IMG/VR virus record: IMGVR_UViG_2734482598_000009
Source: a virus
Lineage: Duplodnaviria; Heunggongvirae; Uroviricota; Caudoviricetes
Reading direction: 5' to 3' (one strand)
DNA length: 6,484 bases
A program made the position numbers and the translations under genes. The stretch's first letter is position 1. Each line of letters starts with the position of its first letter. Below the pieces are notes generated by a model. It was not told the origin of the DNA. It saw nothing but the letters and a program-made list of their open reading frames with translations, and ran no database searches. This document shows, piece by piece, positions 317 through 6,484 of the stretch.

Positions 317-484
317 ATGACCACTATTACCAAAGAACGTATTGAATTGTTCATTAAAAACCCGCTTGAAAACGGGCTTACCCGTGGTGAACAAATGGAA
401 CTGGCACGGATTGCGCTGGCATCGCTGGAAGCAGAGCCGGTTGTGTTCTGGTTTGAAAAATATCAAGAAGGGGCTACGGCATGA
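317..484 (+). CDS. Small hypothetical protein (55 aa), first gene of a translationally coupled trio
   Basis: Strong RBS AAGGAG at 305-310, ATG at 317. Stop TGA 482-484 overlaps the next start (ATGA). Not in the supplied ORF track because it is under 60 aa. Shares the motifs MTT.T.E and IAL(A/V)SL(E/A)AEP with the next ORF. Confidence 0.55.
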
Positions 485-825
485 CGACTTTTACCAGAGA
501 GCAGTTAATAGCTCACGCAGAGGAGACTATTGAAGCACAGAGACTGTGCATACCGGGCACAATCGACCATGACATCATCCGCACATATAAGATGGATATT
601 GCTGTTCTGGAAATCGCACTGGTATCGCTGGCAGCAGAGCCAGCCGGTAAATTGCATGAATACAAACCAGTGGGATATCAGCGTCTGGTCGATGAGTTAA
701 CCATGCTGGTAAAGCAGTTAACCTGGCAACTGAGGAAAGCGAAGCCAGACTGCAAATTACCGGATAAGGCGATGAGTTATCTGGAGCGGAACGGACTGAT
801 AAGCGTGGAGGATATTTTACGATGA
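481..825 (+). CDS. Hypothetical protein (114 aa), N-terminal region paralogous to the upstream 55-aa ORF
   Basis: ATG at 481 overlaps the upstream stop (ATGA). [10 protein letters not shown] here matches [10 protein letters not shown] in the 55-aa ORF. Stop TGA 823-825 overlaps the next ATG. Confidence 0.6.
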
Positions 826-905
826 CCTGGCCTGAAGCATTAACAACGGTAGGAATTGCGATGGCGGTGGCGCTGGTGGTGTATTCGATTTGCCGCTGGG
901 GATAA
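822..905 (+). CDS. Small hydrophobic peptide (27 aa, [27 protein letters not shown]), putative single-pass membrane peptide
   Basis: RBS GGAGGA at 806-811, ATG at 822 overlapping the upstream TGA (ATGA), stop TAA 903-905. One hydrophobic stretch of about 18 residues. Very short, so coding status is uncertain. Confidence 0.35.
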
Positions 906-912
906 AAACGGT

Positions 913-940
913 TTGCGGGAAAAGGAGAGTTAAGTAGAAT
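913..940 (+). promoter_or_regulatory. Candidate sigma70 promoter for the hok mRNA (TTGCGG, 16-nt spacer, TAGAAT)
   Basis: -35 TTGCGG at 913-918 and -10 TAGAAT at 935-940. The predicted start near 947 coincides with the 5' element that is complementary to the mRNA 3' end. Confidence 0.4.
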
Positions 941-1059
941 TGCAGCGGGTGCTTGAGGCTATCTGTCTCAGGCATGAACACCAAAAGGCAGATAGAGAAA
1001 AGCCCCAGTTAACATTACGCGTCCGGCAAGACGCTTAACATTAATCTGAGGCTCAATCT

Positions 1060-1272
1060 ATGAACGGCAAATCTAGGTTAGCCTCTTACGTGCCGAAAGG
1101 CAAGGAGAAGCAGGCTATGAAGCAGCAAAAGGCGATGTTAATCGCCCTGATCGTCATCTGTTTAACCGTCATAGTGACGGCACTGGTAACGAGGAAAGAC
1201 CTCTGCGAGGTACGAATTCGAACCGGCCAGACGGAGGTCGCTGTCTTCACAGCTTACGAACCTGAGGAGTAA
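1060..1272 (+). CDS. Mok-like reading frame (N-terminally extended, in frame with hok, shared stop)
   Basis: ATG at 1060 with GAGG 8 nt upstream; 70-aa ORF whose last 51 codons are the Hok toxin. In-frame mok/hok arrangement with shared stop is recalled from chromosomal hok loci. Confidence 0.5.
   Translation: MNGKSRLASYVPKGKEKQAMKQQKAMLIALIVICLTVIVTALVTRKDLCEVRIRTGQTEVAVFTAYEPEE
1117..1272 (+). CDS. hokD: Hok/Gef-family type I toxin (51 aa), most like HokD/RelF
   Basis: MKQQKAMLIALIVICLTVIVTALVTRKDLCEVRIRTGQTEVAVFTAYEPEE carries the Hok hallmark (hydrophobic TM helix, TRK.LCE, conserved EV.AF.AYE). RBS AAGGAG at 1102-1107 with 9-nt spacing to ATG 1117. The hokD name is from recalled sequence. 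Confidence 0.85.
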   Translation: MKQQKAMLIALIVICLTVIVTALVTRKDLCEVRIRTGQTEVAVFTAYEPEE

Positions 1273-2908: not shown

Positions 2909-3289
2909 ATGACCGAGCGCATAGAATTTGTTTTACCTTACCCGCCGACGGTGAACACTTACTGGCGTCGTCGTGGCAGCACATATTTTGTATCAAAAGC
3001 CGGGGAGCGTTATCGCCGGGCAGTGGCGCTTATTGTTCGCCAGCAGCGGCTGAAATTAAGCCTGTCCGGAAGGTTGGCAATAAAAATTATTGCAGAACCA
3101 CCGGATAAGCGCCGCCGTGACCTGGACAATATTCTGAAAGCGCCGCTGGATGCGCTGACGCATGCGGGGTTGCTAATGGACGATGAGCAGTTTGATGAAA
3201 TCAATATCGTTCGTGCTCAGCCAGTATCTGGTGGACGTCTGGGGGTGAAGATTTATCCCATAATGCTTGAAGGGCAGGTCAAAAAATGA
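2909..3289 (+). CDS. rusA: Crossover junction endodeoxyribonuclease RusA (Holliday junction resolvase)
   Basis: 126-aa product with PDKRRRDLDNILKAPLDALTHAGLLMDDEQF, matching the RusA catalytic core (PDRRRRDLDN...DALT.AG...DD). Start ATG 2909 directly follows the upstream TAA, and stop TGA 3287-3289 overlaps the next ATG. Confidence 0.9.
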   Translation: MTERIEFVLPYPPTVNTYWRRRGSTYFVSKAGERYRRAVALIVRQQRLKLSLSGRLAIKIIAEPPDKRRRDLDNILKAPLDALTHAGLLMDDEQFDEINIVRAQPVSGGRLGVKIYPIMLEGQVKK

Positions 3290-4005
3290 AACTGGAAGAT
3301 TTACCGNNNNNNNNNNNNNNNNNNNNNNNNNNNNNNNNNNNNNNNNNNNNNNNNNNNNNNNNNNNNNNNNNNNNNNNNNNNNNNNNNNNNNNNNNNNNNN
3401 NNNNNNNNNNNNNNNNNNNNNNNNNNNNNNNNNNNNNNNNNNNNNNNGCAGAAATAAAACCGGCAGTGATGCGTATTATGGCTTCGTATGCGTTTGAAGA
3501 TTATGCCCGTAGCGCGGCGAGCAAAAAACAGTGCCCCTGCTGTCACGGAAAAAAATTTATTGAAAGCGAGGTTTTTACAAACAAGATCCAGTATCCGGAT
3601 GGTAAGCCGCCGGTATGGGCAAAGTGTACGAAAGGTGTGTATCCGTCTTACTGGGAAGAATGGAAAAAAGTCAGGGAGGTGGTAAAAGTTGCCTGTCCGG
3701 AGTGTGGCGGAAAGGGTGAGGTTTCCACCGCCTGTAAGGATTGCCGTGGGCGTGGTGTCGCCATTCATCGTGAAGAGTCGGTAAAACGTGGTATGCCTGT
3801 TATCAGAGACTGCCAGCGTTGTGGTGGTCGTGGCTATGAAAGACTACCATCAACGGAGGCATTTAATGCTATATGCGAGGTGACAAACCAGATAACACGC
3901 GCGTCATGGGAAAAAACAGTTAAGAAATTTTATGATGCGCTGGTGACCCGGTTTGATATTGAAGAAGCATGGGCTGAGCGGCAGTTAAAAAAGGTAACTA
4001 GGTAA
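3286..4005 (+). CDS. Late antitermination protein Q (QuuQ-like) with four CxxCxGxG zinc-finger repeats; N-terminal part masked by Ns
   Basis: Lies between rusA and a PR'-like promoter. Contains CPCCHGKK, CPECGGKG, CKDCRGRG and CQRCGGRG. Frame is continuous across the 141-nt N-run (47 codons). Call is positional plus motif; 47 residues are unseen. Confidence 0.65.
   Translation: MKLEDLPXXXXXXXXXXXXXXXXXXXXXXXXXXXXXXXXXXXXXXXXXXXXXXXAEIKPAVMRIMASYAFEDYARSAASKKQCPCCHGKKFIESEVFTNKIQYPDGKPPVWAKCTKGVYPSYWEEWKKVREVVKVACPECGGKGEVSTACKDCRGRGVAIHREESVKRGMPVIRDCQRCGGRGYERLPSTEAFNAICEVTNQITRASWEKTVKKFYDALVTRFDIEEAWAERQLKKVTR
3307..3447. other. 141-nt run of N (masked or unsequenced) inside the Q gene
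   Basis: Literal N characters. Length is a multiple of 3 and the flanking frame is preserved. Confidence 0.95.
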
Positions 4006-5676: not shown

Positions 5677-5752
5677 GGCCCTTTAGCTCAGTGGTGAGAG
5701 CGAGCGACTCATAATCGCCAGGTCGCTGGTTCAAATCCAGCAAGGGCCACCA
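5677..5752 (+). tRNA. tRNA with CAU anticodon, ileX/ileZ-like (probably tRNA-Ile2 read via lysidine; tRNA-Met not excluded)
   Basis: Folds by hand into a cloverleaf: acceptor GGCCCTT/AAGGGCC, D-stem GCTC/GAGC, anticodon loop CTCATAA, T-arm GCTGG-TTCAAAT-CCAGC, encoded CCA. Close to the recalled E. coli ileX sequence. Confidence 0.85.
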
Positions 5753-5795: not shown

Positions 5796-6045
5796 NNNNN
5801 NNNNNNNNNNNNNNNNNNNNNNNNNNNNNNNNNNNNNNNNNNNNNNNNNNNNNNNNNNNNNNNNNNNNNNNNNNNNNNNNNNNNNNNNNNNNNNNNNNNN
5901 NNNNNNNNNNNNNNNNNNNNNNNNNNNNNNNNNNNNNNNNNNNNNNNNNNNNNNNNNNNNNNNNNNNNNNNNNNNNNNNNNNNNNNNNNNNNNNNNNNNN
6001 NNNNNNNNNNNNNNNNNNNNNNNNNNNNNNNNNNNNNNNNNNNNN
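5796..6045. other. 250-nt run of N (masked or unsequenced), probably hiding the rest of the tRNA cluster
   Basis: Literal N characters, flanked by a tRNA 5' fragment and a possible tRNA 3' fragment. Confidence 0.95.
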
Positions 6046-6062
6046 GAATCCCCCTGTGCGGA
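6046..6062 (+). tRNA. Possible 3' end of a third tRNA (T-loop GAAT, T-stem CCCCC, acceptor TGTGCGG, discriminator A)
   Basis: GAATCCCCCTGTGCGGA right after the gap looks like a T-arm plus acceptor 3' strand. The implied 5' strand CCGCACA resembles the CCGCCAT start of the fragment at 5760. No encoded CCA. Confidence 0.2.
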
Positions 6063-6170
6063 GGGGCAATCAGCGAGTAGGTATATGGGATAATCGCGGA
6101 TTCAGGTGCTGGTACTGAATTCACCGGGAGGCACCCGGCATCATGCAATGGCACATAGCGCCACTCTCCA

Positions 6171-6191
6171 GCCCTCTCCGGAGGGGCTTTT
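6171..6191 (+). terminator. Terminator-like hairpin with T-run
   Basis: Stem CCCTC/GAGGG (6172-6176 / 6181-6185) with TCCG loop, then GC and TTTT (6188-6191). The U-tract is short and offset by 2 nt. Confidence 0.35.
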
Positions 6192-6377
6192 CTGTGCCGG
6201 ATACATCACAGTTTCTGGAACCTTAGGTACTACAGTATCAGTCAGGGTGCTATATTTTCAGATGTGATGAAAGCCTGTCAGCAGGCAGGGCGTATCGGAA
6301 ATGACCCAGTAGAGAAAACGTTGACTCAGATACCGGTGCTGAGTTACCGGGAAACCGGCATCACATGACCGCTATCC

Positions 6378-6484
6378 TGAGGTGTACTGGCAATAGCGGA
6401 CACTACCATTTGTTCTTTTTTTAAGCAGCCATCTGATGATATTTTTCCCTGAAGGCTGCCGGGGAGATATTCCCCAGACGAGAG
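6378..6484. repeat. Right copy of the 107-bp perfect terminal inverted repeat (partner 1-107)
   Basis: Exact reverse complement of 1-107. On the minus strand it repeats the first 11 codons of the left-end ORF, then diverges and stops after 21 codons. Confidence 0.9.

Follow-up and report, generated by a model that had tools for sequence, protein, structure and literature searches.

The locus

The DNA analysed here is a stretch of 6,484 nucleotides from a virus of the Caudoviricetes (IMG/VR record IMGVR_UViG_2734482598_000009), hereafter the window, and our subject is a 27-codon open reading frame (ORF) at positions 822-905 of its plus strand, which starts with ATG and ends with TAA (903-905). 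We refer to this ORF as the WPEAF micropeptide gene. It closes a chain of coupled genes: the ATG forms an ATGA (822-825) with the TGA (823-825) of a 114-aa EaA/Ea22-like accessory gene (phrog_660; 481-825, plus strand), which in turn has an ATGA in common with the end of a 55-aa ORF (317-484, plus strand). A further plus-strand ORF (76-306) ends 10 nt ahead of position 317. A preliminary interpretation made from the letters of the window alone (the sequence-only reading) had proposed that a 27-aa hydrophobic peptide is encoded at this place, with its ATG overlapping the stop of the 114-aa ORF at the end of a coupled operon, and this is borne out by the list of ORFs, by the exact translation and by the two ATGA junctions. 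It had also placed a strong GGAGGA Shine-Dalgarno (SD) sequence 10 nt upstream of the ATG. The motif is indeed found at 807-812 (plus strand), within the final codons (..V E D I L R*) of the upstream gene, and the spacer that separates it from the ATG measures 9 nt.

The next segment downstream (906-946, plus strand) is the left end of a hok cassette, a neighbour outside the 27-aa gene, and contains a putative hok promoter on the same strand (-35 TTGCGG at 913-918, 16-nt spacer, -10 TAGAAT at 935-940). Only three of the six positions of this -35 match and a simple promoter scan made no call there. The TAA of the small ORF is located 8 nt from the putative -35, which agrees with the earlier placement of the peptide directly before the hok promoter. 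Taken by itself, an ORF of 27 codons is within chance expectation; it is the conservation observed across homologues, and not the length of the ORF, that lifts it above chance.

Conservation of the reading frame

Homologues were retrieved by DNA pattern scans, tblastn, exact peptide look-up, a query with a 45-aa alternative-start form and a profile search, and the analysis of selection used a sample of 141 homologous copies with 61 unique 84-mers. Comparing these sequences confirmed the initial observation and indicates that the ORF at 822-905 is a genuine protein-coding gene. The frame, start, stop and length are kept across homologues, and the ratio of nonsynonymous to synonymous polymorphism (pN/pS) among the 61 unique sequences is 0.33 in the frame of the ORF, as opposed to 0.83 and 1.68 in the other sense frames (+1 and +2, respectively); this is the comparison of synonymous and nonsynonymous changes that had been proposed as a check of the ORF. 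Mapping substitutions by Fitch parsimony on a neighbour-joining tree gave 202 events, distributed as 50, 43 and 109 over codon positions 1, 2 and 3. Divergent pairs present a synonymous divergence (dS) above 1 and a nonsynonymous divergence (dN) of 0.1-0.3, and the ratio between the two (w) is 0.09 for the window's gene compared with the copy of phage Av-05 (binomial P = 2e-4).

The window's peptide aligns without gaps to the 60 other unique variants and satisfies the family consensus M-x-W-P-E-A-F-x-x-V-G-x-A-x-A-x-A-[LF]-x-x-Y-S-x-C-R-W-G, in which W3, P4, E5, A6, G11, A13, A15, A17, Y21 and W26 are near-invariant. Replacements in the core are conservative and hydrophobic (I/V/L/M/A/F). Residue 2 is restricted to ANN codons (T/N/S/I), which preserves the TGA of the upstream gene. 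The ORF has exactly 27 codons in 933W, VT1-Sakai, Av-05 and the L111 type of context, with 63-78% amino acid identity and ~70% nucleotide identity. More distant metagenomic homologues, found by a profile search of 1.84 billion representatives, retain the motif WPEAF-xx-VG-x-A-x-A-x-A and a basic residue after the helix.

A second sample was collected independently of the integrity of the ORF by scanning viral contigs with the 5' end of the hok mRNA as an anchor. This yielded 41 copies (24 distinct sequences), 40 of which are intact, the exception being a TAG at codon 3 in L050; two copies carry 6-nt in-frame deletions. The ORF contains a hexamer quasi-repeat (GCGATG GCGGTG GCGCTG GTGGTG; 858-881, plus strand), and variants of 25, 29, 31 and 35 aa originate in other genomes from its expansion or contraction (..GIAMAMAMAMAMAVAL..). 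The length of the predicted transmembrane segment is thus naturally polymorphic through this repeat.

A self-contained cassette behind diverse upstream genes

In a megablast comparison with phages, homology to 933W-type Shiga-toxin (Stx) phages was found to begin at query position 523, equivalent to position 822 of the window and so to the ATG itself. In 933W the upstream gene, L0139, is unrelated to that of the window, yet an ORF for a peptide of the same length is coupled to it by ATGA. Across contexts, the conserved DNA extends from ~15 nt before the ATG, SD included, to the stop codon. Contexts of the DUF551 and L0139 types have the stretch AGGTGAATCAATGA in common, which indicates that the SD travels with the ORF; two flavours of it occur among the copies, GGAGGTGAATCAATGA and GGAGGATRTTTTRCGATGA, and virtually every context has a GGAGG 7-10 nt ahead of the ATG. 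Of the 141 copies, 139 have the ATGA junction, which is kept behind at least three unrelated tails of upstream genes (the EDILR-tail, the DUF551-tail and the 933W L0139 type).

Beyond the stop codon, we observed at least six different continuations among the aligned copies: the hok promoter block of this window; a second small hydrophobic ORF followed by hok; a GC-rich hairpin and T-run ahead of a hok promoter of another kind; a further hairpin with unrelated genes behind it; the genes DUF4222, xis and int in that order (VT1-Sakai); and further early genes (Av-05). Since the limits of homology fall at the SD and at the stop codon, the unit is, by these boundaries, a self-contained SD+ORF cassette of ~100 nt with no promoter, terminator or antisense partner of its own.

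The position of this cassette varies with the phage. In 933W the peptide gene comes after the TraR-like L0141, the DUF551 gene L0140 and L0139, and in VT1-Sakai its neighbours are the DUF551 gene H0068 on one side and xis/int on the other. The window's cassette is found in the nin region, upstream of DUF968-rusA-Q. The 27-aa homologues of VT1-Sakai (MNWPEAFTAVGVAIAVAFILYSLFRWG) and Av-05 (MTWPEAFTTVGVVMAVAFAVYSVCRWG) were identified by tblastn. The coupled upstream gene is almost always a mosaic EaA/Ea22-like gene, with the EDILR-tail (phrog_660) in the window, with a DUF551-tail, or L0139 in 933W, which is itself downstream of DUF551. We also observed that the 55-aa and 114-aa ORFs of the window begin with the same N-terminal module, which heads long DUF551/EaA-like proteins as well; a 300-aa protein in L016 shares its first ~40 residues. 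The 55-aa ORF appears to be a shortened module from the mosaic EaA/DUF551 family.

Distribution and annotation

Copies were detected in at least 1638 of 5426 complete Escherichia coli genomes (~30%), with up to seven matching places per genome and ~3000 matching places. Matches by tblastn were obtained in 95 phage records and 196 plasmid records. The carriers include Stx phages (933W and VT1-Sakai), phage-plasmids and the virulent Vequintavirinae phage Av-05; the same searches revealed copies in ~95-kb non-mobilisable plasmids of E. coli and Salmonella, which are probably phage-plasmids. A strict-pattern scan of one genome per species returned only Escherichia and Shigella, a result that says little on distant taxa. 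The strict pattern also matched two tiny contigs, L131 (Xanthomonas pisi, 431 nt) and L133 (Acinetobacter idrijaensis, 369 nt), most likely through contamination with enterobacterial phage DNA. Finally, a word-index search yielded 58 clusters, with no match longer than 71 aa, assigned to Escherichia, Shigella, Salmonella or E. albertii wherever an organism was named. The exact peptide of the window was found on 15 contigs and its L7F variant on 79 contigs.

The named members of these 58 clusters are all hypothetical or labelled 'DUF551, partial' by the Prokaryotic Genome Annotation Pipeline (PGAP). NCBI and UniRef list the exact peptide under the names 'Prophage protein' and 'putative prophage protein', for instance from E. 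coli 042, and its variants under 'bacteriophage protein'; a few GenBank records, with entries such as CAL6704654.1 and AOM45384.1, carry this bare hypothetical annotation. The RefSeq annotation by PGAP and the classic phage records leave the 27-aa ORF unannotated. In E. coli S163-2 (L127 617-751) the TAA has changed to CAA, and read-through across the hok promoter gives a 44-aa product (WP_258188236.1), found as an exact sequence on 105 contigs, which is the only form that PGAP calls. The suspicion that gene callers miss this ORF was therefore well founded, apart from this form with a lost stop.

We found no significant match for the 27-aa peptide in Pfam, NCBIfam, PHROGs, PADLOC or PDB. A match to phrog_4612 stayed below threshold (E = 0.011), and the 52-aa GTG-start form (MDNSWCVV...) linked to it was discarded because it is an alternative frame over the end of the DUF551 gene and no distinct protein. 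We similarly rejected the 'DUF551-peptide fusion' implied by clusters at 90% identity, whose DUF551 members end in ..PPQEVNQ without the peptide. The entries that PGAP names 'DUF551 domain-containing protein, partial' are contig-edge fragments such as GGESMTWPEAF...CRWG (clusters P0027, P0033, P0049 and others). The lumping of the 27-aa peptide with DUF551 proteins is an artefact of annotation and clustering of overlapping frames. In the exo-xis paper PMC10789677, a search on small ORFs, hok and membrane proteins turned up no reference to the peptide gene.

Independence from hok/sok

The neighbouring hok unit (947-1272) comprises an mRNA leader with the sok target (947-1122, plus strand; Rfam RF01794, 112 bits), the mok ORF (1060-1272, plus strand) and a hokD-type toxin ORF (1117-1272, plus strand); hokD, mokW, hokW and sokW are annotated in relatives. 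The sequence-only reading had likened the 27-aa peptide to type I toxins and small membrane regulators and pointed to its place next to hok. We evaluated this link using a hok-independent sample of 85 copies of the small ORF, 73 of which had enough downstream sequence to judge. A hok gene was found less than 250 nt downstream in 19 of the 73, at 250-700 nt in 6, further away in 6, and not at all in 42. Conversely, the hok cassette (AAAAACGGTTTGCGG...TAGAAT...GGGTGCTTGAGGCT) was found with many other left neighbours, and the AAAAACGGTTTGCGG...TAGAAT block is kept before hok where the small ORF is absent and is nearly identical in 933W. In the window, the small ORF ends (905) upstream of the putative hok -35, and the Rfam model of sok and the hok leader covers 947-1122 only.

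Judged from these boundaries, the small ORF is not part of hok/sok, and its adjacency to it in the window is a mosaic junction of two cassettes that meet at the TAA. The peptide has no match to HOK_GEF (PF01848) at E<=1, although the neighbouring ORF at 1060-1272 matches this family at 3e-23. No RNA family was detected on 822-905 by the Rfam scan, no promoter-like site was found on either strand between 600 and 1380, and neither the peptide nor its three upstream ORFs matched PADLOC-DB. The implied tie to hok and identity as a type I toxin are thus not upheld for this independent cassette.

Small hydrophobic ORFs likewise stand before several other phage hok loci. Class B (MSDDISLAMEGALAVIAVVGVYCLVVFLMDRLGN) encodes 34 aa in L111 (3847-3951), with a strong AAAGGAGGG SD and a hairpin after it; the order in L111 is DUF551 gene, 27-aa peptide, class B and hok. 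Class C (L043/L047 and others; ..VLVLKCALAIAAVMAIYCLAVVLMDRLSD) has a putative start, and class D (L005/L024 and others) encodes 59 aa in apparently two helices (MKNALQFLFVAFWLF...FMAVMCIEYWR) with a strong SD. None of these three classes presented a family match and all are unrelated to the 27-aa peptide. In L009, L013 and L018, ~46 nt before the hok anchor, only the last codons of class C are left (..FMDHLSD*) and the upstream gene is unrelated, ending in ..YCGCVYSLRDTNLH.., which puts the left edge of the hok cassette within the class C ORF in that lineage. At the other end of hok, the 3' part of the mRNA with its terminator hairpin (1341-1358 and T-run) gave a sub-threshold match to isrK (1281-1362; 25.7 bits, E = 0.018), which probably reflects this fold-back/terminator region rather than a separate sRNA.

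Predicted membrane character and proposed mode of action

The peptide presents a hydrophobic core at residues 6-24, with a Kyte-Doolittle mean of 2.16 over 19 residues; the same mean is 1.85-2.45 in six of seven representatives. The summed Hessa-type dG is ~0 kcal/mol for the window's peptide and ranges from -1.7 to +1.6 in the same six representatives. Hydropathy therefore predicts one helix at about residues 6-24, as expected from the single core of membrane-spanning length noted earlier.

We consider it likely that the WPEAF gene is a conserved coding micro-gene, translated as the coupled last cistron of early operons, and that its product is a predicted single-pass inner-membrane peptide acting on a membrane partner. 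In phages of E. coli, Shigella and Salmonella, the gene would be carried on the transcripts of early accessory operons as their final cistron, in the 'ea'/exo-xis or in the nin region. Its expression would follow that of the early operon (pL in the exo-xis context, pR/N in the nin context of the window), which implies that the gene would be silent in a repressed prophage. Translation would proceed by ATGA coupling to the upstream EaA/Ea22-like gene, aided by the cassette's own GGAGG, and the peptide would insert into the membrane without a signal peptide. The N-terminus is acidic, without positive charge even in N-extended homologues, and would most likely be periplasmic, and the conserved R/K that follows the helix would most likely be cytoplasmic; this combination favours an N-out/C-in orientation of the Pf3-coat type.

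During lytic or early development, the face of small residues (G11, A13, A15 and A17) would be packed against a host or phage membrane protein, and the interfacial WPEAF and YS..RW motifs would take part in the same contact. It is the invariance of small residues on the helix, together with aromatic residues at both interfaces, that suggests packing against another transmembrane protein. Small membrane modulators are known to pack against larger transmembrane proteins (reviewed in PMC12648545), and the peptide would be one of these modulators rather than a stand-alone toxin-antitoxin module. The small membrane regulator named in the sequence-only reading is a possible identity.

Several observations weigh against this reading. 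The pattern used to collect part of the 141-copy sample requires conserved residues and so makes conservation look stronger than it is, and pN/pS rises to 0.49 on the codons left free by that pattern, indicating moderate and not strong selection. Some close pairs present w of ~0.5-0.9. Disrupted alleles exist: besides the TAG at codon 3 in L050, there is a 1-nt deletion in L129 and there are frameshifted variants in databases. In-frame indels are weak evidence of coding because the hexamer repeat generates them. In an antisense frame with shared wobble positions the synonymous excess is similar, and this frame was rejected on the grounds of starts and stops only. The peptide does not appear in the text of the RIBOseq supplements for Sakai, and a literature search for strings of its sequence returned no paper. 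Finally, rare natural fusions to a cytoplasmic Ead/Ea22-like domain would be easier to reconcile with an N-in orientation, and both the topology and the binding of a partner are purely what we infer.

Alternative explanations

These fusions bring up another role for the peptide, as a membrane-anchoring or regulatory partner of the modular EaA/Ea22-like early proteins (DUF551, Ead_Ea22), which we regard as possible though rather unlikely. The coupled upstream gene belongs to this family in nearly all Escherichia-phage copies, and in-frame fusions, which surfaced only in the profile search, join an Ead/Ea22-like coiled-coil protein to a terminal WPDAF peptide: P0118 (143 aa; six contigs; L216 4001-4432) and P0120 (206 aa; L215 156-776). 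The fusions have DUF4222, xis and int downstream of them, in an Escherichia prophage inserted beside rcsB. Such fusions hint at a functional tie with the upstream family. Yet they are rare (seven contigs vs ~3000 unfused matching places) and retain an internal ATG from which the free peptide may still be made, and the mixed peptide/DUF551 clusters at 90% identity hold none. The C-terminal modules of the upstream proteins are also mutually unrelated, which makes a single specific interface unlikely, and distant metagenomic homologues sit behind unrelated genes (an AAA-like gene and a nuclease). A killer peptide of the type I kind, tied to hok/sok or acting as a second toxin of the module and depolarising the membrane, seems to us less probable still. 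The flanks diverge right after the stop of the SD+ORF cassette, which excludes a conserved antisense promoter or RNA as part of it, the Rfam match to sok begins only at 947, and no match to HOK_GEF or another toxin family was found. Type I toxins are expressed from a promoter of their own and behind a long structured leader, unlike the peptide, whose translation is coupled to the upstream gene. A hok gene does lie within 700 nt downstream in about a third of informative copies (25/73), and other hok loci have small hydrophobic ORFs before them too, but 42 of the 73 informative copies have no downstream hok and the gene also occurs in a virulent phage. The peptide resembles DinQ, TisB, Ibs and Sho-type toxins in size and composition, type I toxins being small (<60 aa) membrane toxins with a single helix (PMC12648545), and it may have membrane-damaging or pore-forming activity.

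It is also conceivable that translating a terminal mini-cistron is what matters and that the peptide is irrelevant, with ribosomes protecting the end of the operon from Rho and RNases or modulating read-through into the hok promoter. The small ORF is always coupled and often the last cistron, several contexts have a hairpin resembling an intrinsic terminator directly after it, and the window has the hok promoter 8 nt away. We judge this very unlikely in view of the constraint on amino acids, seen in the synonymous excess and in the conservative hydrophobic replacements: WPEAF, G11, Y21 and W26 are invariant at 63-78% identity and in distant metagenomic relatives, and the length of 27 codons is fixed across very different contexts. 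Least credible of all is that there is no gene and that an overlapping element is conserved instead, be it an upstream element of the hok promoter, a structured RNA or an antisense gene. Hok promoters with the same AAAAACGG...TAGAAT block exist without the small ORF and the small ORF exists without hok. An RNA element was ruled out, as 822-905 has no Rfam match and folds no better than its shuffles (z = +1.28). Antisense ORFs do occur, one of 55 aa in the window (817-984) and one of 249 aa annotated in Stx2 phage II; an antisense gene was nevertheless ruled out by missing starts and variable stops, since in most of 84 distinct contexts the antisense frames either offer no start codon or close 0-60 nt beyond the cassette, and the limits of homology match the SD and the stop of the sense strand.

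The long annotated antisense ORF (Stx2 phage II ORF C38, Stx2II_p072; L124 201-950, minus strand) covers L0139 together with the small ORF, the hok promoter and sok. The translated product is of low complexity and the ORF is not conserved across contexts, its counterpart in the window being the ORF at 817-984 on the minus strand. This call is probably spurious and may have kept the real small gene from being annotated.

Significance and remaining features of the window

Small membrane proteins are a recognised and under-annotated class, in which this peptide is unusually common, often with several prophages per genome carrying it, while the gene is omitted by RefSeq and is in no family database. 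Deletions in the exo-xis/ea and nin regions alter lysogenisation and the induction of Stx prophages. The cassette lies in those regions, and 'ea22-like' knock-outs may therefore have unknowingly removed or uncoupled the peptide gene. If the peptide were instead a partner of the upstream proteins, coupled translation would bring the 'pro-lysogenic' EaA/Ea22/DUF551 proteins to the inner membrane, the cassette would supply a component so far missing from the phenotypes assigned to exo-xis in lambda-like and Shiga-toxin phages (such as the choice between lysis and lysogeny, or the induction of Stx prophages), and the Ead/Ea22-peptide fusions would constitute Rosetta-stone evidence. The gene is, in addition, an uncomplicated and inexpensive target for functional studies of small proteins, its ~100-nt SD+ORF cassette is an easily tracked unit for the mosaicism of phages, and its case illustrates that adjacency to hok alone does not place a peptide in a toxin-antitoxin module.

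Elsewhere the window consists of the nin/late-control region of a lambdoid prophage, with DUF968, RusA, antiterminator Q, a DNA methylase, a tRNA and STnc100. Q occupies 3286-4005, with the 27-aa gene upstream of it. The tRNA (anticodon CAT; 5677-5752) lies downstream of Q and the DNA methylase, and Rfam matches to the STnc100 sRNA were obtained at 6017-6199 (strong, 69.8 bits) and at 6238-6426 (a weak second copy). A similar late-region layout with a tRNA is presumably present in Stx-type phages.

Comparison with known systems

The closest database relatives are the unnamed 27-aa 'prophage protein' entries, whose sequence is identical or near-identical to the window's peptide. They are a minority of records, and no Pfam, NCBIfam or PHROG model, name, literature or function is attached to them. 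The lambdoid exo-xis/'ea' genes (ea22, eaA, DUF551 and orf73/TraR) form the same neighbourhood in 933W and VT1-Sakai (PMC7093339, PMC10789677, PMC10834534), from which the window differs by having its cassette in the nin region. Relative to holins, we obtained only sub-threshold matches with an artificially extended 45-aa form (Phage_holin_3_3, E = 0.027; phrog_785, E = 0.067), and the peptide gene is located upstream of Q, in the nin/ea region, and not in the lysis cassette downstream of Q as a holin gene would be. A match to DUF883_C also stayed below threshold (14.5 vs a cutoff of 27).

Type I toxins (Hok/Gef, DinQ, TisB, IbsC, ShoB and ZorO) are alike in having fewer than 60 aa, one hydrophobic helix and short tails, and in often being left uncalled (PMC12648545). 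The peptide differs from them in that it has no family match, no cis-antisense RNA, and neither its own promoter nor a long folded leader; it is instead coupled, occurs in a virulent phage and is mostly found without hok.

Pf3 coat-type N-out/C-in peptides with a single span resemble the window's peptide by their short acidic N-tail without positive charge, their one helix and the basic residue after it. Signal-less peptides of this type insert via YidC or spontaneously. The likeness is topological only, and the rare fusions would argue for the opposite orientation.

The small inner-membrane modulators KdpF, MgtS, AcrZ, MgrB, PmrR and CydX differ in that the peptide has no homology to them that we found (the KdpF model TIGR02115 scored 12.5 bits, below its cutoff of 26.85), is borne by phages and belongs to early phage operons. 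They are alike in their 25-50 aa, their single helix and their conserved small-residue and aromatic interfacial positions. By analogy, we favour the interpretation that the WPEAF peptide works like these small modulators of the inner membrane.

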